Position numbers and translations under genes: made by a program. 64,000 nt of DNA from Mobula hypostoma (taxonomy: Eukaryota), in the NCBI RefSeq assembly GCF_963921235.1, contig NC_086097.1:167526001-167590000 (forward strand), given 5' to 3'. Positions 1,061-62,842 of this stretch are shown piece by piece; positions within the stretch are counted from its first letter, which is position 1, and every line of letters starts with the position of its first letter. Below the pieces are notes generated by a model. It had not been told where the DNA came from. It saw only the letters and a list, made by a program, of their open reading frames with translations, and made no database searches.

Positions 1061-1899
1061 TTGAAGTAATATGAAGGAAAACAATAACAGAAAGCAGAAT
1101 GAACTGTCACAGATACAGAGACAGTGCAGTGCAGGCAGACAATGAGGTTCAAACTCTAATGAGACAGATTGTGAAGTCATGAGTCCACCTAATTGTACTA
1201 AAGGATTGTTCAAGCAGCCACCGGTTGTGGATGAAGAGGATTGACAGCAGCTGGGCCCTAAAATTACCCATGGGTGGCCAGATGTGAAGAAGGATGTACC
1301 TGGCACGCTGGGTCGCATTGCTGAGCTGGAGATGTAGTGGGCTTAAATTGAAGAAACATCTAAGTAGGGGACTGCCCACCTGATGTCCCCTGGGAAGCAT
1401 CAGCCACCCACCAAGCCCCACTTCAACTTCTCTGCCCTATGCTATGCTGAGTTTGGATCTGCTTATCAAAGGGATTGAAACATCTGGTCCTATGAGCTTG
1501 AACCATTATAACAGTGGGATGGAAGCAATCCTTGAAACTGATGATATGTACTTACGGGTTTTTGTAGCCTAATGGGAGACAGGAGAGGACAAAATGTCCA
1601 AAGCACCTGTCTGATATTCCAGGTTCCAGCATCAGCAATGCCTTGCGTCTCCATGATCCCTCCGCTATTTCCAGGGCTACTTCCATTCATACACTGCAAT
1701 GCAGATTATCAAAACCTGAGGAATTATGAGCATTTAGTCCCATCCTTAATTTTAATTTCCTTCAGTTTCTCCCTCTCTTTAGACCATCGGTTTCCTAACA
1801 CACCTGAGGGATTTTTGCCCCCCACCCCACCCGCCTTTGTAAACACAATCAAATATCAGTGTTGTGCCTCCTCTTCAATCCTGGTTATAATATCAGCCG

Positions 1900-2094
1900 A
1901 CATACATCAAAGTTGCTGGTGAACGCAGCAGGCCAGGCAGCATCTATAGGAAGAGGCGCAGTCGACTAGTCCTGACGAAGGGTCTCGGCCTGAAACGTCG
2001 ACTGCGCCTCTTCCTATAGATGCTGCCTGGCCTGCTGCGTTCACCAGCAACTTTGATGTATGTTGCTTGAATTTCCAGCATCTGCAGAATTCCT
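1900..2094 (+). mobile_element. Penelope-like (PLE)-derived fold-back insertion with 16-bp TSD
   Basis: TSD GTTATAATATCAGCCG at 1884-1899 and 2095-2110. Perfect 67-bp inverted repeat 1900-1966 / 1997-2063. An inverted truncated terminal repeat is typical of PLE insertions. Confidence 0.8.
1967..2004 (+). ncRNA. Minimal type-I hammerhead ribozyme motif
   Basis: Stem I UAGUC(1967-71)/GACUG(2000-04); core CUGACGA(1972-78); stem II AGG/CCU; GAAA(1992-95); palindromic ACGU in place of stem III; GUC triplet (1997-99). Confidence 0.7.
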
Positions 2095-2359
2095 GTTATA
2101 ATATCAGCCGGTTTTGATTGTACCTTCACCAATCTTTTTCTCTTCAATTGTTTTAATAGGTTTTTACAGTCAATTTTTATGCTCTCTGCAAACGAATTAT
2201 TTTTAGATAACCGGAGGTTCATTCTTCTGATTGGATCATGGTCTGTCTGCATCTACTCCATTGCTTTGGAAATTCATGCCAAAAAAAAACAAAACAAAAC
2301 AATGTTTTTGCTGCTGGTTCCTTCAGAACTATTGGCTAGAAAACTGTGAATTTCAGAAC

Positions 2360-4129: not shown

Positions 4130-5190
4130 TATTTGAGAGACTCTTAAACACTTCTATCATATCTGCCTCCACCACCTCTGATAGCACATTCCAGAGACCA
4201 ACCGTGCTCTGTGTGAAAAACTGGCCCCACAGATCTCCTTTGAACCCACCCACCTCCCCACCTCCCCAACTTAAATGCAAACCCTTTTGTATTAGACATT
4301 TTGATCCAGGGAAAAGATACTAGCTGTCTACACAATCTATGACTCTCCTTCTCATGATTTTATAAGCTTCTGTCAGGTCTCCCCTCAGCCTCTGCGGCTT
4401 CAGAGAAAACATCCCTGGTTTGTCCAGCCTCACCTTGTTACAAATTCCCTCTAATCCAGACAGCATCCTGGTAAGCATGTTCTTGCCATTTTCCAAAGAA
4501 TGAAATCTGAATTTGCCAGAAGAGGAGAGAGATAATAAAGGTGAATACTAGATATAAGACATAGGAGCAAAATTAGGCCATTTGGCCCATTGGGTCTGCT
4601 CCACCATTCAATCATGGCTGATTTATTTTCCGTCTCAATCCCATTCTCTTGCCTTCGCCCCATAATCTTCTTGATCAAGAATCTATCAATCTCTCATTTG
4701 AATATACTCAATGACACAGCCTCCACAGCAGTCTGGAGCAATGAGTTCCACAAATTCTCCACCCTCTAGCTGAACAAATCCTCCTTATCTTTGTTATAAA
4801 GGGACATCCTTCTATTCTGAGGTAGGTCTTAGACCCTCCCATTATTTAAAACATCCTCTCTGTGTCCACTTTATCTGGATCTTTCAAAATTTGGTATGTT
4901 TCCCTCATTCTTCTAAAGTCTAGTGAGTACAGGACCGGAGCCTTTAAATGCTCCATGCATGATAATCCTCTCATCCCCAAGATCATCCTCTGGACCCTCT
5001 CCAATGCCCGCAGATCCGCTCTTAGTTATAGGGTCTAAAACTGCCCTGAATACTCCAAATGAGTTCTGACCAATGCCTTATAAAGTCCCTGCATTATGTC
5101 CTTGCTTTCATATCCTGGTCCTCTCAAAATCAATACTAACATTGCATTTGCCTTCCTTACAACTGACTCAACCTGCAAAGTAAGCTTACA
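4130..5190 (-). mobile_element. Degenerate CR1 3' fragments (at least two)
   Basis: Reverse-complement CR1 3' UTR starting taagacataggagc at ~4555, plus ORF2 C-terminal remnants. Boundaries approximate. Confidence 0.7.
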
Positions 5191-5235
5191 TGACGAGAGA
5201 CAGGACTGAGATGGCTGGATGGTTTATTATCTTGA

Positions 5236-5365
5236 GGCCTGAGGAAGGGTCTCGGCCTGAAACTTCAACTGTACTCTTTTCCATAGATGCCACCTGGCCT
5301 GCTGAGTTCCTCCAGCATTTTGTGTGTGTTGCTTGGATTTCCAGCATCTGCAGATGTTCTCTTGT
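5236..5365 (+). mobile_element. PLE-derived short repeat with degenerate hammerhead core
   Basis: cCTGAGGAagggtctcggcctGAAActtc followed by tagatgccacctggcctgctgagttcctccagc...ttccagcatctgcaga, homologous to 1967-2094. Confidence 0.75.
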
Positions 5366-21714: not shown

Positions 21715-22695
21715 GAAACACAGAAACATAGAAAATAGGTGCAGGAGTAGGCCATTCGGCCCTTCGAGCCTGCACCGCCATTTATTATGATCATGGCTGA
21801 TCATCCAACTCAGAACCCCGTACCAGCCTTCCCTCCATACCCCCTGATCCCCGTAGCCACAAGGGCCATATCTAACTCCCTCTTAAATATAGCCAATGAA
21901 CTGGCCTCAACTGTTTCCTGTGGCAGAGAATTCCACAGATTCACCACTCTCTGTGTGAAGAAGTTTTTCCTAATCTCGGTCCTAAAAGGCTTCCCCTTTA
22001 TCCTTAAACTGTGACCCCTCGTTCTGGACTTCCCCAACATCGGGAACAATCTTCCCGCATCTAGCCTATCCAATCCCTTTAGGATTTTATACGTTTCAAT
22101 CAGATCCCCCCTCAATCTTCTAAATTCCAACGAGTACAAGCCCAGTTCATCCAGTCTTTCTTCATATGAAAGTCCTGCCATCCCAGGAATCAATCTGGTG
22201 AACCTTCTTTGTACTCCCTCTATGGCAAGGATGTCTTTCCTCAGATTAGGGGACCAAAACTGCACACAATACTCCAGGTGTGGTCTCACTAAGGCCTTGT
22301 ACAACTGCAGTAGTACCTCCCTGCTCCTGTACTCGAATCCTCTCGCTATAAATGCCAGCATACCATTCGCCTTTTTCACCGCCTGCTGTACCTGCATGCC
22401 CACTTTCAATGACTGGTGTACAATGACACCCAGGTCTCGTTGCACCTCCCCTTTTCCTAATCGGCCACCATTCAGATAATAACCTGTTTTCCTATTTTTG
22501 CCACCAAAATGGATAACTTCATATTTATCCACATTAAATTGCATCTGCCATGAATTTGCCCACTCACCTAACCTATCCAAGTCACTCTGCATCCTCTTAG
22601 CATCCTCCTCACAGCTAACACTTCCACCCAGCTTCGTGTCATCCGCAAACTTGGAGATGCTGCATTTAATTCCCTCATCCAAGTCATTAATATAA
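21715..22695 (-). mobile_element. Young 5'-truncated CR1 LINE; uninterrupted 290-aa RT C-terminal frame
   Basis: ORF 21810-22682 with SKFADDTKLGG, LVRPHLEYCVQFWSP, TRGHSLRIKG; (tttctatg)-type tail at ~21715-21735. Confidence 0.95.
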
Positions 22696-24183
22696 CATAA
22701 GATCGGAGGTAACCTACAATTCGTATTACTATAGGACAGTACTGGGTAAATACTCCCAAATGATTGCCAAGTCTTGTGTATAAGTTACTAACCTTTAATT
22801 TCATTTTCAATATCTGTACATAGATATGTGACTCAAGACCTTTGCAGCAAAAGTAGTGCTGACCTGGATTTATATCTGTTGTGCAGAATATCAGATAAAC
22901 TGCAACAGCTCTTTTGAAACATCAAGTCATATTATGTTTCTCCCCCATACGATCCAAATGAAATCAATCAACTTGTAAAGTCTCTTTGGGCTGCTTGAGC
23001 CACTTGACTCCATCCTCCAGAACAACTACATCATGACATTTCTTAAATTGATTCAGAATGCATTTCAGCCACACTTCCAATGAGGCATTCTGGCTGTTGA
23101 TCAGATTCTGTAAAGAAATACTCTTCAAAGCTCTGTGTCCATGGTTTTTCTACAGCCCTGACGTACCTGAAAGTATCTCTTTACATTTACTTCATCTTCT
23201 TAAGAATGTGACATTTTTTAAAGGTCACCTCTGGGACATCTTTTTTATCACAATTCATTCCTCATCACTACTTCTGCAACCACCAAAAAACAGCTCTTCA
23301 TTTTCAGCTTCTTTACCTCGAATGCTGCCAATGTCTCTGATGCAAAGCAGATTATGAAAACTAATAAAGAAGCATACAAGGCCAAAGAATTCACACACAG
23401 CATTGGGAAATCCTGCAAATCTCTACAAATTCATGCAGAGCCTAGAAATTCGTTCACATGTCCTATTTTTCTCAAAGCTGCACAAATGAAGATCACTAGA
23501 TTGTGGAATGGTTCCCAAGGGCTAGAAAATTGCAAATGTCACTCCACTCTTTAAGGAGGGAGAGAGGCAGAAGAAAGGAAATTATAAGCCAGTTAGCCTG
23601 AATTCAGTGGTTGGAAAGATATTGGAGTCTATTATTAGGGATAAGGTTTCAGGGTATTAGAGGTAACATGATTAAGAAAAACAGGCCAAAGTTATACAGT
23701 TTAATATGTGGCTAAGGAGTTGGTGTACAGTAGAAGGGAAGGCATAAGACTTTTGGAGCATTGGGCTCTCTTCCAGGGAAGGTGGGACCTGTACAGAAAG
23801 AACAGTTTGCACCTGAACTGGAGGGGGACTAATATCCCAGCGGGTAGGCTTGTTAATGCTGCATGGTCGGTTGGGTTTAAGCCAGAGTTGCAGGGGGATG
23901 GGAACCAGAGTGCCAGAAGAGTTAGCGGAGAGGCTGTGCAGGCAGATATTGGTAAGACCTCAGACAAAGTTGGGAATCATGGTGTGACTCGTGTCCTGAG
24001 CTGTGTAGATTTCAATGCAAGAAATATTGTAGGAAAGGAAGATAATAGTGCTGGAGATGAGATAGCTAGTTTATAAACAGACGTAATGTGCAGTGAGGAG
24101 AGGCTGTTGATAGGGCAAAATTTCAGTCAACAGAATGAGTTGCAACGTGAAAGGCAGACAAAATTGAAAAGGGTGAATACGGG

Positions 24184-27100
24184 TGTCATGACCCCTGCTG
24201 CTTGCCAAAAAGCTTTGAACTTTAGGGGGCTTTGAGCACCTGTGCTTACTAATTAATATCTTAACAAGAGTTGTTAAGCCCTTGTGTTTCCAGTTGAATC
24301 TCATTAAATTCATCGTAGCTGACACATTTTTCTTGGATTCGATGATTATTTAAGGAGGACTCCGATTCAGTACCTCAGTAGACCCCAAAGTGGGTGTTTG
24401 AAAAAGCTGATTGGGGTAAGTTCCAGAAGTTGAGTGAAGAAGGGTTGACAAAGATTGATATTTCTGGAAATGTAGATGAATTAAACAGTCAGGTGACTTC
24501 AGCAATTATCATGGCAGCAGAAGGATCTATACCTAGGAGTAAAAATAGGATGAATAGAAAACTGGTACCATGGTGGACAGAGGAATGTTGTCAGGCTGTA
24601 AAAAACAGAAATAGAGCATTCAGGCTAGTTAAAAGAACCCATAATATGCAGTATTTGGTTCAATATAAGAAAGCACAGGTAGTGGTGAGAAGAACTATAC
24701 GTCAAGCTAAAAGGGCAAGTTGGAGGACTTTTTGCGACAAGGTAGGAAGAACAACACCTGTGGGAGAGATATGGGGAATGATTAAGAGGATGGGAGGAGA
24801 TAGAAGGGAATGGGAATATCTAGTAATGATATCTGAGGAGGAAACTGCAGTCTCCAGTAGGGATAAGGCTGAGGTCATGGCCAAGTCATTTGTATTGATA
24901 CACGGTTCAGAAAATTTGTCTGAAGAAGGGAGAAGAACAAGGGAAAGAATAATGAGCCAACACCCAGGTGTGTTAAGCAGGAGGGAAGGAACAGATGATA
25001 TAATTGATGATCCATTTACATTAGCATAAATGGTGAGAGCAATAAAGAGATCGAGACCAACCTCCCCAGGGAAAGATCTGATATGCTCTGTGATGCTAAA
25101 AAATCTAGGAGAAGGAGCGCTCTTGAAGTTGCTGCATTTTTATAACAGAGTGTGGGAGGAGGGAAGATTACCAAGTGCATGGAAAGAAGCAGTAGTAATT
25201 CCAATAAGGAAGCCTGTCAAGGATCTGTCAAAACCCACTAGCTACAGACCAATTGCATTAACATCAAGTATATGTAAGATAATGGAAAGGATGATAACAG
25301 AAAGGTTATCATATGAGCTTGAGAAAAGGGGAATGCTGGCAAGTTATCAGAGTGGTTTTAGAAAGGGAAGGAATTCCATGGACTCAGTGATTATGTTAGA
25401 GACTGAAATAAGGAAGGCCCAGGCAAATAGAGAGTCAGTAGTGGCAGTGTTCTTTGACATTGAAAAAGCCTATGATATGATGTGGAAGGAAGGATTATTA
25501 ATTAAACTGCACAAGATGGGGGTTGGTGGGAGAGTTTTTAATTGGATTAAAGATTTTTTGTTTGGTAGAAAAATTCAAGTTCGGATTGGATCAGAATTAT
25601 CAAAACAGTACATAGTGGAAAATGGCACACCTCAAGGTAGTGTGATTAGCCCGTTACTTTTCATCATTATGTTCAATGATGTCTTCACAAAGGTACCAGT
25701 GGATATAGGTAGGTCACTGGTTGCGGATGATGGGGCCTTGTGGAAAAGAGACAGGAACATGGACCATATAATCAGGAAACTACAAGAAGCAATTGATGAA
25801 GTGGTGGAGTGGGGTTATGATTGGGGATGTAGATTTTCAGTAGATAAAACTCAAACTGTATTTTTTACCAGGAAAAGGGTTGAGATAGGGAAGAAGTTAA
25901 GGATGTATGGCGTTGAATTAGAAAGGGTTGCATCATTTAAATTTCTGGGAGTTATATTTGATTCACGATTAACATGGGCAGACCATATCAGGAAAGTTGA
26001 GGAGAAATGTAAAAAAGTAATAAATGTGATGAGATGTTTGACTGGTAGGGAATGGGGAGCAAGTTGTTCAGCTTTGAAGAGAATGTATGTGGCTTTAGTA
26101 AGATCTATATTGGATTATGGAAATATAGTATATGGATCAGCATCTAGGTCTCTTATAAGGAAACTGGATGTGATTCAGGCTCAGGCCTTGAGAGTGTGCA
26201 GTGGGGCTTTTAAAATGTCACCAGTGTCAGCCCTACAGGTAGAAATGGGAATAATGCCTTTGGAACTAGGAAGGATGCAACCGATAGCAAACTACTAAGC
26301 TAACTTGCAGGGGCACAATGATTCTCACCCTACTAAAGGAGTGTTGCAGGAGTGCTGAGAAAATGGGAGGTTTCAGAGGGATACCTTTAGTCTGGTAGGG
26401 AATGATATCGTGAAAGAATGTGGAGTATTTGATCTGAGGATAAGTCCTTCAGTAGTTTATCCGGTTGTAGCTCCATGGAAGCTTGTATGGCCTGACATAG
26501 ACTGGCATTTGTTAGAGGTAAAAAGGAAAGAAAGATATAAAACAGATTTGGTAAATGCATTTAACTGTCATGTGATGGAAAAGTACTGTGATTATACTCA
26601 CATTTATACGGATGGTGCGAAGGAACCTGAAACAGGAGTGACAGGGTTTGGGGTGGTAATACCAGCAAAAGAAATTGGAATCAGCAGAAGAACATCTAAT
26701 AAGTTAGGGGTGTTTACAGTGGAGATGCTGGCAGTGTTGGTTGCGTTGCAATGGGTGCAGAAAGCCAGACAAGTCAAAGCATTGATATGTTCAGATTCAT
26801 CCTCAGTTCTAGCAAGTTTAGGGTCTTTTCACACAAACAGTCGGCAAGATGTATTTTTGAAGTGCTTCAGTTAGTTACAAGAATTGCAAATCAGGGAGGT
26901 CAGGTAAAATTTCTATAGGTTCCAGCACATGTAGGGGTGAAGGGGAATGAGAGGGTGGATGAGTTGGCAAAGTGGGTGTTAAAGAAAAAAATACACAGAA
27001 ATGCACATTAGTATCAGTAAAGCAGAAGTTAAGTGTGTAATCTGGGAAAAATCAACCAAATGTGGCAAGGAAGATGGAACAGGGAGGGGAAAGGAAGGCA

Positions 27101-30829: not shown

Positions 30830-31285
30830 AAAACAAGAGGCACTACAGATGCTGGAAATCTTGAGTAATACACACAATGTACTTGTGGTAAACCATATAT
30901 GTTGTAACTGGGTTACCTGTCTGGACGCGCCCCTCTGCTGACTGCTCCTGTGGCTCCTCCCACAGACCCCTGAATAAAGGTGATTGTGCCACTGCTCCTC
31001 CTCTCAGTCCAGGGGGAGATACTCAGCAGGGATAAGACCCATTTTACTGTTAATAAAAGCTTTTCAGCATTTACTCTACTTCCAGTCTTTTGGAGTAATT
31101 GATCGTGCATCAGTACTGGGGGAGCTCTGTCGATCAGGCAGCCTCTACAGATGGGAATGAGCAGATAATGTTTTGGATGGAGACATTTCCAGTCCTGAAG
31201 AAGGATCTCGGCCTGAATGGTCGACTGTCTACTCCCCAATAGATGCTGCCTGACCTGCTGAGCTCCTCCAGCACATTGTGTGTAT
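30830..31285. mobile_element. PLE-derived fold-back pair, left arm interrupted by a solo LTR
   Basis: Antisense arm 30830-30883 + 31113-31189; sense arm from ~31190 (agtcCTGAAGAaggatctcggcctGAAtggtc). Confidence 0.7.
30884..31112 (+). mobile_element. Solo LTR, 229 bp
   Basis: TG...CA ends; perfect 5-bp TSD GTACT (30879-30883, 31113-31117); internal AATAAA. Confidence 0.85.
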
Positions 31286-32624
31286 TTCCTAGTACCTAGA
31301 CTTTGCCATACTTGTGCACATACAATAAACTCCTCTTAATTTGACTGGACTGGAGATAGAAAAGTGAAGGATGTTTAAAGTGGTAAGCAATGTTAATACT
31401 CACAGGGACCTGGAAGTTAACAAATGGTACAGTAAATAATCACGAAGATAAAAGTTTTGATCTTTATTGCAAAGGAACTAGATCACAAGAATAGAGCTGT
31501 CTTGGTCCAATTATACAGGGCCCTGGTGAGATATACAGAAGTATTGTCTTCAGGTCTGAACACCCAACTGAAAGAAGAATATACAAGGATATATTTGTGA
31601 TGGAGGGAATATAGCAAAGATTCAAATCACTGATCCTTGATATGATGGGTTTATCATTTGGAACATTAAGCATCCTAGTCCTGTAACTCTGGAGTTTTGA
31701 AGAATGAGATATGATCTCATCGAAACATGTTATATATAGTTTTACAGGGTAGATGCAGAGATGATGTTTCCCTTGGCTGAGCTGCTATGAACGCGAACGC
31801 AATCACAATCACTGAAGTGTTGAATATTCAAGACAGTTGAAAAGAAATGTCTTGCCCCAGGGAATATTCTACTCAAAAAGCTGTGGAACTGAGACAGATT
31901 TTTAGATATAAGGAATATATGGCCGTGCAGTGAAATGGCACTGACATAATAGGCCCTTTGGCCCAAATGGGCCGTGCTGACCAAGATACACATCCAAGTT
32001 AGTCATTTTCCCCCTTTCCTATCCATGTATCTGTTCAAGCATCTTGTAAAAGATTGGCCGAAATCTTATTAAATGACAATATAGCAAAAAGGGCTTTGCA
32101 GCAACACACAAGAGTGCAGAAGGAACTCAACGGGACTGGCAGCATCTCTGGAGGTAAATGGACAGTCGCCAATTTGGGCCCAGACTCTTCCTCAGGACTC
32201 TACAAGGGCTCTACCGCTCATGTTTATTTAGCTTTTATGTTGTAGCACAGGATGCCTCTGGGGTTTCTATAGCACTAGGCAAGTCTTTGTCTCCTGACCC
32301 AACCTGAGTGAACAATGCCATCCATAGCAATGCCTGCAGGGATGAAGAGCTGTACTGGTGCACCAAGAGCTGCCCCCAGGCACCCGGTCAATATATGTCA
32401 CAGTAGCTATGTTCTGGGGAGAAAGCATTTCCAGTTAGCTGTGTTGCAGCCAGCTCCAAAGCTGCACAACAATGACTCCCAATCTCTGAAAGAAGCCAGA
32501 GATTGATGGGATTGCAACCCATGTTTTTAAAGGCTGTTTCTGTGCTCTATTGATTCTGTATGTTCTATGATTCTATCTAATTCAATCTTAAATCACGTAC
32601 AGAAAGCAGAATAAAATTCTTTCT

Positions 32625-33463: not shown

Positions 33464-33614
33464 GTCTGGTAAAAAAGATAAGAAAGAAATAAAAGAGCAA
33501 ATATTTTCCTAATATCTCTAACAATAACAATTAAAAGTGCGGAAGGCAAGGCAAATTAATATCATTTCTTCCCATTACATTCTGTGATGGGAGCTCAAAC
33601 AATTTTCCCTTTTA

Positions 33615-34805
33615 CACACATGGACTTCAGTAAGGCCTTTGACAAGGTCCCGCATGGGAGGTTAGTTAGGAAAATTCAGTCGCTAGATATACATGCAGAG
33701 GTGGTAAATTGGATTAGACATTGGCTCAATGGAAGAAGCCAAAGAGTGGTAGTAGAGAATTGCTTCTCCGAGGGGAGGCCTGTGACTAGTGGTGTGACAC
33801 AGGGATCAGTGCTGGGTCCATTGTTATTTGTCATCTATATCAATGAGCTGGATGATAATGTGGTAAATTGGATCAGCAAATTTGCTGATGATACAAAGAT
33901 TGGAGGTGCAGTAGACAGTGAGGAAGGTTTTCAGAGCCTGCAGAGGGACTTGGACCAGCTGGAAAAATGGGCTGAAAAATGGCAGATGGAGTCTAATACA
34001 GTCAAGTGTGAGGTATTGCATGTTGGAAGGACAAACCAAGGTAGAAAATACAGGGTTAATGGTAAGGCACTGAGGAGTGCAGTGGAACAGAGGGATCTGG
34101 GAATACGGATACAAAATTCCCTAAAAGTGGCATCATAGGTAGATAGGGTCGTAAAGAGGGCTTTTGGTACATTGGCCTTTATTAATCAAAGTATTGAGTA
34201 TAAGAGCTGGAATGTTATAATGAGGTTGTATGAGGCATTGGTGAGGCCGAATCTAGAGTATTGTGTTCGGTTTTGGTCACCAAATTACAGGAAGGATATA
34301 AATAAGGTTGAAAGAGTGCAGAGAAGGTTTACAAGGATGTTGCCGGGACTTGAGAAACTCAGTTACAGAGAAAGGTTGAATAGGTTAGGACTTTATTCCC
34401 TGGAGCGTAGAAGAATGAGGGGAGATTTGATAGAGGTATATAAAATTATGATGGGTATAGATAGAGTGAATGCAAGCAGGCTTTTTCCACTGAGGCAAGG
34501 GGAGAAAAAAAACAGAGGACATGGGTTAAGGGTGAGGGAGGAAAAGTTTAAAGGGAACATTAGGGGGGGGCTTCTTCACACAGAGAGTGGTGAGAGTATG
34601 GAATGAGCTGCCAGACGAGGTGGTAAATGTGGGTTCTTTTTTAACATTTAAGAATAAATTGGACAGATACATGGATGGGAGGTGTATGGAAGGATATGGT
34701 CCGTGTGCAGGTCAGTGGGACTAGGCAGAAAATGGTTCGGCACAGCCAAGAAGGGCCAAAAGGCCTGTTTCTGTGCTGTAGTTTCTATGGTTCTATGGTT
34801 CTATT
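33615..34805 (+). mobile_element. Young 5'-truncated CR1 LINE
   Basis: MDFSKAFDKVPH, QGSVLGPLLF, KFADDTKIGG, LVRPNLEYCV; (tctatggt)n tail at ~34785-34805. Confidence 0.95.
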
Positions 34806-42597: not shown

Positions 42598-42710
42598 GAT
42601 CCCGATGAAGGGTCTCAACCCGAAACATCAACTGTTTATTCATTTCCATAGATATTACCCGGCCTGTTGAGTTCCTCCTGAATTTTGTGTGTGCCGCTCT
42701 GGATTTCTTG
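42598..42710 (+). mobile_element. PLE-derived short repeat (degenerate hammerhead core)
   Basis: cccGATGAagggtctcaacccGAAAcatc..tttccatagat..gttgagttcctcc. Confidence 0.65.
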
Positions 42711-53494: not shown

Positions 53495-54325
53495 CACAGA
53501 CAAAATGCTGGAGGAATTCAGCAGGTCAAGCAGCATCAGTGCAAACAAAACAACAGTTAACTTTCCAGGCTGAGACCTATATTCAGGACTGGAAAGGAAG
53601 TGGGAAGATGCAAGAATAAAAAAGGCAGGAGGAGGGGAAGGAGGACTAGCTGGAAGATGATAGGTGAAGCCAGGTGGGTGGGACAGGTAAAAGACTGGAG
53701 AGGAAGGAATCTGATAGGAGAGGGGAGTAGAACATGGGAAAGGGAAAGAAGGAGGGGCACCAGAGGGGAGCTGATAGTCAGGTGAGGAGAAGAGGTAAGC
53801 GGCCAGAGTGGGAAATAGAAGGATAGGGAAGGGGCGGGGGAGAAAATATAGAAATTACCGGAATGAGAAATCATTGTTTGCGCCATCAGATTGGAAGCTA
53901 CCTAGGTGGAATATGAAGTGCTGCTCCTCTACATTGAGATGGCCTCATCATTGCAAAAGAGGAGGTCGTGGACAGATATGTTGGAATAGGAATGTTACCA
54001 GAAATCCACAATGGCTTCGATGGGACCTTCTTTCCTTTCTCCCGTGGTCGAATTTCCTCTTCTATCAGATTCCTTCTTCTCCAGCCCTTTACCTTTCCCA
54101 CCCATCTGGCTTCACCTATCATCTTCTAGCTAGTCCTCCTTCCCCTCTCCCCACCTTCATATTCTGGTATACAGTATTCCCCTTTCCTTTCCAATCCCGA
54201 AGAAGGGTCTTGGCCTGAAATGAAAGGCTGTTTATTCATTTTCATAGATACTGCCTGACCTGCTGAGTTATTCCAGCACTTTTTTGTGTTACTGTGGATT
54301 TTCAGCATCTGCAGAATCTCTTGGG
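53495..54325. mobile_element. PLE 3' ends in inverted (fold-back) arrangement
   Basis: Antisense copy 53495-~54000 (terminal unit plus purine-rich body) followed by sense copy ~54020-54325; ORFs 53600+ and 53898- share MIGEARWVG.VK.WR.RNLI. Confidence 0.8.
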
Positions 54326-55764: not shown

Positions 55765-55899
55765 AAACACAAGGAAATCTGCAGATGCTGGAAATCCACA
55801 GTGACACACACAAAGTGCTGGAGGTACTCAGCAGGTCAGGCAGCATCTATGGAAATGAACAAATAGTTGATGTTTCGGGCAGAGACCCTTCTTCAGGAC
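55765..55899 (-). mobile_element. PLE-derived short repeat
   Basis: Minus strand gtcCTGAAGAagggtctctgcccGAAAcatcaac..tttccatagatgctgcctgacctgctgag. Confidence 0.75.
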
Positions 55900-57130: not shown

Positions 57131-60100
57131 GTTACTAGCTCTCTATTTCCACCAGCGTCTCTCCTATTCATACTTAACTTTAAAACTCTTCTAACATGTC
57201 TCCCCTCAGACTCCACTGCTCCAGAGAAAACAACCCAAGTTTGTCAAACTTCAGCGCATAGCAACTGCCTTCTAACCATAAGACATGATTACATCATTTT
57301 GACTTCTGAACCTCATATCCTATTCAAAAAAATTACATGAAGATGCACCACAGGAGTCTTCCCAAAGGTTTAGCTAAAGAGAATGCAGTTTTGCATGTCA
57401 GAAATCCCTCTGACAATTTAGAAACAATTTCAGGGTCAGGATAGATGGTGAAGACGAAGAGGCACTGTTCCTTTCCTTGATCTCATTTTCTGTCATTACT
57501 CCAACAAACAAAAGTTCTGAGTCAAATTGCCAACTGCAGACTCTGAGTCATGTTTGAACCTGACTATGGCAGGTGGCAGAAAATGGTATTCACATTGGTA
57601 TTGTTTATTCTTGTCACATGTACCAAGATTCAGTAAAAAGCTTGTCTTGCATACTGTTTACATAGATCAAACCATTACACTGTGCATTGAGCTAGAATAA
57701 AGTAAGACAATAACAATGCAGAATGAAGTGTAAAAACTGCTGAAAAAGTGTAGTGCAGGTAAATGATAAAGTGCAAGATCACAATGAGGTCATTGTGAGG
57801 CCAGGAGCCCATCTTATCGTACAAGAGGTTCAGTCAAGACTCTGATCTCAGTGGGAACAAAGCTGTCCTTAAGCCTGGTGTTATGCGTTTTCAGGCTTTG
57901 GTATCTTTGCCTGATGGAAGACGGAAGAAGAGAAAATGTTCAGGATGTGTAAGGTCTTTGATTATTCTGGCTGCTTTACTGACGTAGCATGAAATATAGG
58001 CAGTCCATAGAGTTCATTTAGTCCATAGAGGGTGGTTTTTTAAATTACTCCAGGGAAAGACATTACCTTTTCACAGGTTCAAGAAAGGGATGAAAATCCT
58101 TCTCCAGTTCATCAATCCTGTTTTACAGATGGCAGAAAAGTCACATCCCCGCCATGTTGACTAACACTGGAACATAAGGAACAAGAGCAGGTAGAAGCCG
58201 TTCAGACTCTCCACCATGGGCTGAACCATTGCACAGATGCAAGGACAAAGAACTTTGGGGAGATTTGGCAAGTCTCTCTGAAAAGTACCAACATGGCTGC
58301 AAAACGTAATGGACTAAACTGGCTCCATCTCAGGGACAGCCTCTACAGGAGGTCCTGTCCATTGATTTATAGACCCATAAATGGCAGAGCTAACGATGCT
58401 GCATGTACTCCATTACCCGACCAGGGGACATCGACTATCCGGTTCCCTGCTTAGTTGCAGCCAGACCTGCTGAGTTCCTTCAGCATCTTGTTTGTTGCTC
58501 CACATTCCAGCATCTGCAGCTTCCTGTGTCTGTAGAATAAAGAATACTCTTCCAATAGGGAGTGCAGGAGCAAAAAGGCCATGGGGTATGTGTGCACATG
58601 TCATTGAAAGTGGGAGGGCATGTGATTAATAAGGTAGGCACAATTCTGACATTTATCAGTAGAGGTATAAATTATAAAAACGGGGAAGTTAGGTAAACCT
58701 TCACAAATACAGGTCAGTCTCAACCGACGTATTGTAATCAACTTAGGTCACCTATTATAGGAAGGGTGTAAAGCTATGACAGGAAATATAGAGAAGATTT
58801 ACGTGTATGATTCCTGGGATGTGAGATTACAGATGTAAGGAGAGATGGGAAGGGCTGGAAATGTTGTCTTTGGAGAAGGCTGAGGGAAGGTCAGATAGAA
58901 ATAAATAAAATGAAAAGGGGCAGAGCATATAGTGGGAGATTGCACCATTGGTGGGGAGGTTGAGGACAAGAGATCACAGGTACATAATAAAGAAGAAGAG
59001 AATTAACAGAAGTGTGAGAAAAAACCTATTCTATGCATCACGTGACTGGAATCCAGGAGGTTCTGGCTGCAGATGTTGCAGAGGCAAGTTTGATTGTGGC
59101 CTTCAGATAAATATACAGTGAGGAACATGGAACTGAACAGCAGTGGAATTAGGCCCTTTGCCCCACAATATTGTGCAGAACTCATTTAGAGGAACATTTG
59201 GGGCGAGGTCAGAGCTAGGCTTTTTACACTGTAATGGATGCCTGGAATGCACTACTTGGTAGAGACTGATGCAACTGAGGTATTGAAGAAACTCTTAGAA
59301 AGGCACATGGATGTAAGTAAAATGGAGTGTTATGGACATGTAGGAGGAAAGGGTTTGATTGATCATGGAGTAGGTTTATATGGGTTGGCTCAGAATCATG
59401 GGCTGAAGGGCTTTTACTTCTTGATTTGACTTCTTTATGTGCTTTACCTCTCTACATTCTATGTTCTGATGACTTGCAAAGCTATGAAGATGGGGCTGGT
59501 GTGTGGAACTAGTGAGTTATTCTGACAGAGAGTTGACGTGGACCTCTTGGGTCAAACAGTCTCCATATCCGCTGTAACCTTCCATAATTCATTAACATTA
59601 TCCAAAATAACACCTTCCCAAAGAACATTTATTTCTAACAGTGTATTGACTGTGGATCTTCTAAAGTCATACAATCATTCCCCTTTAAGAATGTAGCTTG
59701 GGAACACTGAACACCATACACAAACCATTTTCCAAATGCTTGTGCTTGTGAAGTCAGAGAACGATTAGTTGTAACAGGTTATCTCATAGAAGAAGAGAAA
59801 CATGGGTTCACAGAAAAAAAAACAGATCATTGAAAACCCTGTGGGCATAGATGATACAATTGCCCACGGATTCCACACGGTAAAGTGTTCACATCTGTTA
59901 CTACAGAGCTGACATGGACACAATAGGCTAAGTGACCGCTTTCTGTGCCTTAAGTTATTATGCTTCGACAATAATAAACAATTGCTTATTAAATCTCAAT
60001 GAAACTGTGCATGAAGCATGTAATTAGTTGAAAATGTTAATGGGCCAAATTATTGAGAGTTTAAGTTATAGTACTTGGGATCTAATGCTCCTAATTATAT

Positions 60101-60902: not shown

Positions 60903-61196
60903 AACAGGAATTCTGCAGATGCTGGAAATTCAAGCAACACACATCAAAGCTGCTGGTGAACGCAGCAGGCCAGACAGCATCTCTAGGAAGAGGTGCACTC
61001 GACGTTTCAGGCCGAGACCCTTCGTCAGGACTAACTGAAGGAAGAGTGAGTAAGGGATTTGAAAGTTGGAGGGGGAGGGGGAGATCCAAAATGATAGGAG
61101 AAGACAGGAGGGGGAGGGATGAAGCCAAGAGCTGGGCAGGTGATAGGCAAAAGGAATACGAGAGGATCATGGGACAGGAGGTCCGGGAAGAAAGAC
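60903..61196 (-). mobile_element. Young PLE 3' end (294 bp) with hammerhead motif, inserted in a Rex1-like fragment
   Basis: 11-bp TSD AAGTTGTAAGC (60892-60902, 61197-61207); minus strand tagtcCTGACGAagggtctcggcctGAAAcgtc (61001-61033) is identical to 1967-1999. Confidence 0.85.
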
Positions 61197-61498: not shown

Positions 61499-62842
61499 TG
61501 ACTACAGACCACAGACCGGTGCATTGACCTCCCACATCATGAAGACCCTGGAGAGACTTGTTCTGGAGCTGCTCTGGCCTATGGTCAGGCCACACTTAGA
61601 TCTCCTCCAGTTCGCCTACCAGCCCTGACTAGGAGTTGAGGATGCCATCGTCTTCCTGCTGAACTGTGTCTACGCTCACCTGGACAAGCCAGCGAGCACT
61701 GTGAGGGTCATGTTTTTTGACTTCTCCAGTACGTTCAACACCATCCGCCCTGCTCTGCTGGGGGAGAAGCTGACAGCGGTGCAGGTGAACGCATTCTTGG
61801 TGTCATGGATTCTTGATTACCTGACTGGCAGATCACAGTACGTGTGCTTGCAACATTGTGTGTCTGACAGAGTGATCAGCAGCACTGGGGCTCCACAGGG
61901 GACTGTCTTGTCTCCCTTTCTCTTCACCATTTACACCTCGGACTTCAACTACTGCACAGAGTCTTGTCATCTTCAGAAGTTTTCGGATGACTCTGCTATA
62001 GTTGGATGCATCAGCAAGGGAGATGAGGCTGAGTACAGGGCTATGGTAGGAAACTTTGTCACATGGTGTGAGCAGAATTATCTGCAGCTTAATATGAAAA
62101 AGACTAAGGAGCTGGTGGTAGACCTGAGGAGAGCTAAGGTACCGGTGACCCCTGTTTCCATCCAGGGGGTCAGTGTGGACATGGTGGAGGATTACAAATA
62201 CCTGGGGATACGAATTGACAATAAACTGGACTGGTCAAAGAACACGGAGGCTGTCTACAAGAAAGGTCAGAGCCATCTCTATTTCCTGAGGAGACTGAAG
62301 TCTTTTAACATCTGCTGGACGATGCTGAGGACGTTCTACGAGCCTGTGGTGGCCAATGCTATCATGTTTGCTGTTGTATGCTGGGGCAGCAGGCTGAGGG
62401 TGGCAGACACCAACAGAATCAACAAACTCATTCGTAAGGCCAGTGATGTTGTGGGGATGGAACTGGACTCTCTGACGGTGGTGTCTGAAAAGAGGATGCT
62501 GTCCAAGTTGCATGCCATCATGGACAATATCTCCCATCCACTACATAATGTACTGGGTGGGCACAGGAGTACATTCAGCCAGAGACTCCTTCCACCGAGA
62601 TGCAACACAGAGCGTCATAGGAAGTCATTCCTGCCTGTGGCCATCAAACTTTACAACTCCTCCCTTGGAGGGTCAGACACCCTGAACCAATAGGCTGGTC
62701 CTGGACTTATTTCATAATTTACTGGCATAATTTACATATTACTATTTAACTATTTATGGTTCTATTACTATTTATTATTGATGGAGCAACTGTAATGAAA
62801 ACCAATTTCCCCCAGGATTAATAAAGTATGACTATGACTATA
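61499..62842 (+). mobile_element. Young 5'-truncated Rex1/Babar LINE; 330-aa uninterrupted RT frame
   Basis: FFDFSSTFNTI, GAPQGTVLSPFLF, KFSDD, YKYLG; AATAAA plus (tatgac)n tail; the 5' junction follows a (TA)n run. Confidence 0.92.

Follow-up and report, generated by a model that had tools for sequence, protein, structure and literature searches.

In inverted insertions of EN+ Penelope-like elements (PLEs), a copy truncated at its 5' side lies next to an inverted one; a 30–40-bp tail is present at one end only, the whole is flanked by a short target-site duplication (TSD), and the pseudo-LTR contains a hammerhead motif (PMC8557442; PMC3846280, Pen2a_Av). Minimal hammerheads occur in fish Neptune elements, where opposite-strand pairs 100–700 bp apart have already been noted, and in D. 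virilis a 3' splice site lies at the 5' end of helix I (PMC4209133). The D. virilis Penelope element has an internal promoter, and the 3' end of its intron meets helix I (PMC2377424, PMC4209133). In vitro, purified protein of the Poseidon element PAc of the green anole cut and extended both target strands, with a predicted dimer and with uncut RNA as the main template; reverse transcription began at two adjacent internal sites that matched the tail ends (PMC11167929). The available text of that study draws no link from the two starts to two nicks or to inverted copies (PMC11167929). The origin of the inverted ends and tails of PLEs, and the role of the hammerhead, are stated as open questions (PMC3846280, PMC8557442, PMC11167929). 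Our literature search, with subscription journals mostly outside its reach, found no publication on the shark and ray PLE family described here or on twin priming in PLEs.

The insert and its parent element

The window, by which we mean the whole 64,000-nucleotide stretch analysed here, contains a 195-bp insert that is the stump of an abundant Neptune-type Penelope-like retrotransposon and not an element in its own right (Table 1). A preliminary description had reported a perfect 67-bp hairpin with a 30-nt loop and a 16-bp TSD, and re-measurement returned the same values: the inverted repeat 1900–1966/1997–2063 is exact over 67/67 bp and meets a mismatch at once when extended inward or outward, the loop (1967–1996) is 30 nt long, and the direct repeats 1884–1899 and 2095–2110 are identical at 16/16 positions. 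Because the first 3 bases of the right-hand repeat are also the native continuation of the element, the TSD measures 13–16 bp. Overlooked in the earlier account was an unpaired stretch of 31–34 nt (2064–2094/2097), absent from the left arm, which is the diagnostic Penelope 'tail'. Both hairpin junctions are covered by read contigs (1469–1926 and 2073–2700) with 0 differences; these contigs come from run X1, from which the assembly may have been built, and no empty allele of the site was found in that run. The arms themselves (1900–1966 and 1997–2063) show 0 differences, and so no editing scar. The direct arm begins at 1967, within the family hot spot for 5' truncation (1964–1979), and over 1968–2097 it is identical to 2 other fetched arms.

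Table 1. Positions of the insert's features and of related copies in the window
Feature	Position	Strand	Basis or remark
Left TSD copy (13–16 bp)	1884..1899	+	Sequence; family TSD mode 13–14, range 10–19, 94 pairs
Inverted arm: element 1997–2063 reversed, ending at the family's short 3' end, no catalytic core	1900..1966	-	
Direct arm: 3' part of the Neptune-type PLE pseudo-LTR, reaching the long 3' end	1967..2097	+	
Minimal type-I hammerhead motif, predicted cut after C1999	1967..2004	+	Sequence; layout as in PMC4209133
Tail, unpaired	2064..2097	+	48 short ends, 50 long, none between, among 98 arms
Right TSD copy, first 3 bases also the native element continuation	2095..2110	+	Sequence
Second young family copy, ~290 bp, 95% identical, non-inverted, long 3' end	60903–61190	-	
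Older copies of related subfamilies, decayed cores	5235–5363, 31191–31273, 32123–32199, 42600–42674		
Older copies of related subfamilies, decayed cores	53590 onward, 54195–54317, 55772–55899, 58452–58519		

A full-length parent was found at another locus (L038), where a pseudo-LTR, a 1,043-codon frame (stop to stop) and a second pseudo-LTR are present, the pseudo-LTRs lying in direct repeat (4656–4898 versus 1143–1386, 98%). The translation contains RT motifs and a C-x4-C-x2-C linker upstream of a C-terminal GIY-YIG endonuclease, which has two cysteines between its GIY- and YIG-like motifs and two histidines further on (CCHH-type). Pfam matches fell below the curated cut-offs both for RVT_1 (E 0.0047, 17.1 bits, cut-off 29.6) and for GIY-YIG (E 0.0011, 19.6 bits, cut-off 22.6); in this copy a frame shift affects part of the RT. 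Neptune elements are defined by a CX2-5CxxC linker before the GIY-YIG domain together with CCHH (PMC8557442), and by that motif definition the parent, judged from its translated sequence, is a Neptune-type PLE; Nematis shares the linker. The traits of EN+ PLEs present here comprise the ORF with RT and GIY-YIG, the direct pseudo-LTRs, the one-sided tail, the inverted 5'-truncated copy and the TSD. A sister subfamily has left a short head-to-head insert at L038:951–1142, directly against the full-length element's 3' end, a position suggesting that it entered the element's own end or the sequence next to it.

The family is abundant: a 30-mer from the element's 3' part occurs at 64,181 places in the genome (reversed control 0), genome copy counts here and below being exact-pattern matches. 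Within the window, 1967–2094 has nine matches: two are the arms of the hairpin, and among the other seven one reaches 95%. The young copy at 60903–61190 carries a short flanking duplication and one change in helix I, just past the cut site, and several of the older window copies start right at helix I. At two separate loci (L114 and L163) the truncated arm has its 5' end at 2008 and is preceded upstream by the same foreign 45 bases, a hint of either a duplication or a chimeric sub-family. The window also contains 22 stop-to-stop frames of at least 130 codons, the long ones reading by eye as other retrotransposons; those at 21810–22784, 24382–26874, 33560–34606 and 61629–62693 resemble RTs of other non-LTR retrotransposons (by eye). 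Diverged copies (73–82%) of another short repeat lie at 626–724 and 2246–2358, the second just to the right of the insertion. The hairpin copy is real, ordinary and of a kind already described, and matters little by itself, as one among tens of thousands of dead ends of its family.

The preliminary description had taken the perfect arms and TSD to imply a very recent insertion, an argument that the data do not support. Perfect arms are usual in this family, arms without a difference over 52 bp being found at 20 of 31 places with the same junction layout. Zero changes in the 80 duplicated bases bound the divergence only at <1.9% per site, or ~27 million generations when 7e-10 per generation, a shark rate from a different species, is applied (PMC10587355). 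This bound is loose, and perfection alone therefore does not date the insertion. Evidence of another kind comes from a 667-base contig of a related species (organism C), which aligns to 1474–1895 (24 differences in 422) and then to 2119–2343, with 26 letters in place of the window's 223, 14 of the 26 being unaccounted for. As far as its sequence can be read, this contig appears to be an empty site, and because it reads as empty, the insertion would be lineage-specific and postdate the split from organism C. Organism B offered no coverage of the site. The window copy belongs to the youngest subfamily seen.

The hammerhead motif and its predicted fold

The core comprises CUGACGA (1972–1978), GAAA (1992–1995), GUC (1997–1999) and the palindromic ACGU (1995–1998), with helix I formed by 1967–1971 paired to 2000–2004, an extra A at 1979, and helix II at about 1980–1991. 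The required parts (CUGANGA, GAAA, UH, helices I and II, and a palindromic helix III stub) are all present, and the motif and stem I lie where the preliminary description had placed them. Within 1884–2110 there is one core on the + strand and none on the minus strand. The motif is not a product of chance, because a 49-base stretch over the ribozyme has 9,994 exact copies in the genome, compared with 0 for the reversed control. Its earlier assignment to the Penelope-type minimal type-I hammerheads is correct, and its layout is like the published one (PMC4209133). In an Rfam scan with an E limit of 10, hammerhead families were absent from the results, and what did match were generic microRNA-hairpin models, scoring well under their cut-offs; minimal hammerhead forms evidently lack an Rfam model.

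Stem II had been described as AGG/CCU, which pairs A1979 with U1991. The helix II register of the window copy is uncertain, since the published minimal PLE hammerheads leave this A unpaired and close helix II with G10.1-C11.1 (PMC4209133). At base 1991, C is commonest among older copies (16/33) and T among young copies (141/163). Because 1991 is U in the window copy, helix II would close with G-U or A-U and no canonical G-C; the G10.1-C11.1 pair after an unpaired base is absent.

Conservation was measured on 33 older and 163 young copies drawn from 283 matches, the rest being too short. Among the 33 older copies the core averaged 0.87, with N7 its most variable position (0.45), while the linker 2004–2016 reached 0.70 and the downstream block 2018–2045 reached 0.87, equal to the core. 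The outcome for the expectation that CUGANGA and GAAA would be conserved in excess of their flanks is thus mixed. The pattern, with N7 varying freely and its neighbours retained, is consistent with the presence of a ribozyme in the active lineage, though conservation does not rise above that of the downstream block.

Predicted folding, with energies covering secondary structure only and containing no tertiary or dimer terms, indicates that in RNA of 1900–2097 the left arm pairs over the cut site with a probability >0.99, in agreement with the earlier proposal that this arm buries the GUC. The helix-I register lies 16.1 kcal/mol above the ensemble in the window copy (predicted fraction ~5e-12). 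In the native context the gap to the active register is 4.0–4.2 kcal/mol, owing to a 4-pair helix across the core. The hammerhead of the window copy is thus predicted to be blocked by its mirror arm and not to be switchable.

The preliminary description had gone further, proposing that transcripts alternate between two exclusive folds. Exclusive they are not, at least not fully, as the helix-I register is reachable, and only reachable, through an 8-nt slip that retains 60 of the 67 outer pairs. We consider it very unlikely that the hairpin is a selected two-state RNA, a ribozyme dimer in one state and in the other a long duplex that silences the family. The complete core would suit such a function, as would a slipped fold that keeps helix I together with 60 outer pairs, and contigs of two runs, RNA by guess, contain sequence of the element. 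Long RNA duplexes are, moreover, substrates for ADAR and Dicer. The energy gap of the ribozyme register argues against a switch, as do the many other junction variants to be found among the 104 places with this layout and the apparently empty site in the related species; no promoter or host gene was found for the hairpin. In addition, published minimal PLE hammerheads showed no activity as monomers and low activity as dimers (PMC4209133), or are reported to need the protein (PMC11167929). No RNA holding the hairpin locus is on record, and contigs cannot show starts, ends or editing. Host read-through of the + strand is predicted to give a 67-bp duplex burying the cut site, and the minus strand would be without a core. 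Hairpins of this kind, numbering thousands, may supply a great deal of double-stranded RNA in this genome.

Another class of junctions places the inverted arm so that it lengthens helix I to >60 perfect pairs with no blocking (L042, L044, L058, L059 and others). These copies, joined through a 4-base self-complementarity of helix I, occur at 11 exact places in the genome, and their gap to the active register is predicted to stay at 4.0 kcal/mol. They are predicted to be natural 'locked-open' counterparts of the window copy.

Insertion geometry across the family and a proposed integration route

An unbiased sample of 98 arms was obtained from the first 100 30-mer matches on one contig (C1, first 4 Mb). 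An inverted partner was present at the 5' end of 43 arms, 32 met flank, and 23 continued into element sequence; these 23, which ran into element sequence that the reference did not follow, were left out of the 5'-end count. The 3' ends were of two kinds, 48 short (2060–2072) and 50 long (2094–2139) with 0 between, ~35 nt apart, and both kinds occurred in simple, non-inverted insertions (15 short and 17 long of 32). All fetched loci together yielded 108 inverted pairs, a mixed set partly selected for short hairpins, and 105 of them combined a short with a long end, compared with 2 short+short and 1 long+long (P ~6e-28 if independent). TSDs of at least 10 bases were found in 94/108 pairs (range 10–19), 60 of the 94 measuring 13–14. 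The two arms of a pair agreed at site 2060 in 66/66 pairs (expected 0.50), at 2027 in 87/93 (expected 0.52; 6/93 disagree), at 2017 in 66/68 and at 2006 in 67/69 (expected 0.69 each). Many pairs ended no more than 30 nt from each other, some differed by ~1 kb in length, in either direction (L035, L036), and three short-ended insertions (L117, L133, L170) carried, by eye, a mere scrap of inverted long end.

The layout with the core in the loop, which the preliminary description had regarded as special, is found at 104 places in the genome, and nearly half of the unbiased arms (43/98) have an inverted partner. Each of the 31 places of this layout that were examined, the window's included, had one short and one long end and a duplication of 12–19 bases; the tail belonged to the loop-bearing arm at 18 of them and to its partner at the remaining 13. 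The 5' ends piled up in 1964–1979 (28/75; P 6e-6), at a density of 1.75 per nt compared with 0.41 and 0.50 in the adjoining stretches. Three of the 75 coincided with the cut site (P ~0.008), and some cut RNA may therefore serve as template. Counted genome-wide, 1,108 symmetric junctions fall on the ribozyme 5' edge, as against 71 at ~20 nt upstream and 23 at the cut site; the anchors behind these counts are shared unequally among subfamilies, the 5'-edge anchor being found in more of them; because 19/40 sampled hot-spot loci belonged to the window's subfamily (by eye), a fair contrast is nearer 500 versus 23 versus 71. Ribozyme cleavage as the setter of junctions was rejected as the main route, given the 23 symmetric junctions and 3/75 5' ends at the cut site; 14 of the 23 are also accounted for by a 6-base palindrome.

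The inserted sequence is the end of the element's pseudo-LTR, and each inverted insertion has one of each of the two discrete 3' ends. We think it probable that the insert arose as a 5'-truncated, head-to-head PLE insertion in which both nicks primed one uncut RNA, with the left arm predicted to hold the hammerhead inactive. The pairing of short with long ends, the variants shared between arms, the tail on either side and the pile-up at the 5' edge favour two primings on one uncut RNA. The element's protein would nick both target strands ~13–16 bp apart, and the 3' ends would correspond to two internal starts of reverse transcription, one per nick, for which the anole PLE offers an in vitro precedent. 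Both cDNAs would then run toward the 5' end of the RNA and stop near the 5' edge of the hammerhead, one arm would be trimmed to 1997, and the two arms would be end-joined. The stop would likely mark the start of the RNA or be caused by a helix, a structural stop after helix I being just as possible as an RNA start at the ribozyme edge.

The concordance of the arms could also come from fold-back copying or from later homogenisation. Under fold-back or self-priming, one cDNA, or an antisense RNA (PMC3846280), would snap back and be copied, then be trimmed by the endonuclease at the short end, with the centre revised later; this origin is rather improbable in our judgement. It would readily give variants common to both arms, pairs ending within 30 nt of each other and the 11 exact copies joined through helix-I self-complementarity, and palindromes at PLE inversion junctions have been published (PMC3846280). 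The tail, however, is on the loop-less arm in 13/31 places, which one cDNA cannot yield without later revision; a lopsided deletion of the palindrome's centre at a later time could rescue this. Against fold-back, too, short ends are found in 15/32 simple insertions, scraps of long end lie at the 5' junction of short-ended insertions, and some pairs differ by ~1 kb in length in either direction.

The exact junction of the window copy (29 bases) recurs at one other place (L040) with different flanks and its own TSD, as might be seen if the hairpin were a mobile unit copied whole, in the manner of a MITE or a retrozyme. That explanation is highly improbable. The two diagnostic sites (T2027, G2060) set the other locus apart from the window copy on each arm, and its end points differ too; it therefore arose in a separate event. 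A hot spot would be expected to give two such copies among 104 junctions of similar type, and tandem units, needed by non-LTR retrozymes (bioRxiv 10.64898/2026.07.22.740005), are absent. A MITE-type family was rejected, the exact junction being found at 2 places only, unlike in diagnostic sites and ends, as was a non-LTR retrozyme, with one core on the + strand of 1884–2110, none on the minus strand and no tandem units. We propose that the hairpin is a by-product of two primings on one RNA, without a selected function.

An even chance may be given to a more specific form of the two-priming route, in which the stumps are a record of how PLEs integrate. A dimer of the protein, sitting on one uncut RNA, would begin copying from the short start site at one of the nicks and from the long start site at the second, so that a single two-ended priming would account for the constant 13–14-bp TSD, for the tail on one side and for the inverted copy. 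The 5' end of the RNA, initiator- and splice-acceptor-like, would lie at the first base of helix I. The native sequence at the ribozyme 5' edge reads as what we take to be an initiator and a splice acceptor after a pyrimidine tract, and its acceptor-like form is kept in older copies. If this form is correct, the ribozyme would serve as a leader at the 5' end of the element's RNA, and the template would not be defined by its cutting. Contigs of run X10, an RNA run by guess, contain four joints with a common donor-like site in the endonuclease coding region (L038:1239–1840, minus strand), landing at 1674, 1623, 1592 and the ribozyme 5' edge (one contig each; junction letters unclear); one of these joints is also in run X20, and the joints listed for DNA run X2 include none of them. 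Spliced RNA as the template was rejected, the donor being joined to the ribozyme in 0 genomic copies (exact pattern). Of greater consequence than the hairpin copy are the counts over the family: the short+long pairing, the shared arm variants and the 5'-edge pile-up yield precise predictions for the in vitro system already established for PLEs.

Comparison with known systems

The window copy resembles the inverted insertions of EN+ PLEs in its inverted copy, one-sided tail, TSD and pseudo-LTR hammerhead, but differs from them in that its arms are too short for any ORF and its junction lies inside the ribozyme region. Unlike those of the Neptune clade, the TSDs here are in mixed sequence and not in (TA)n. 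In L1 twin priming, a second nick primes the same RNA and produces a 5' inversion, the inverted part being upstream sequence with no duplicate. Here, in contrast, the proposed starts are 35 nt apart, so that the same stretch would be copied twice. The TSD of 13–16 bp is longer than the 8–10 bp of the rotifer PLE examples (PMC8557442, PMC3846280), and PAc, the element with in vitro data, is from a different clade.

The motif is like the minimal hammerheads of metazoan PLEs in having a short helix I, an unpaired base after A9, a palindromic 15.2–16.2 and no helix III (PMC4209133). It differs from them in two respects: the young subfamily has U, not C, at 11.1, and the C at N7 permits a predicted inhibitory 4-bp helix across the core. 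Non-LTR retrozymes are likewise non-coding and PLE-derived and carry a type-I hammerhead, but the window copy, in contrast to them, is not tandem, has one core, and is arranged head-to-head between TSDs.
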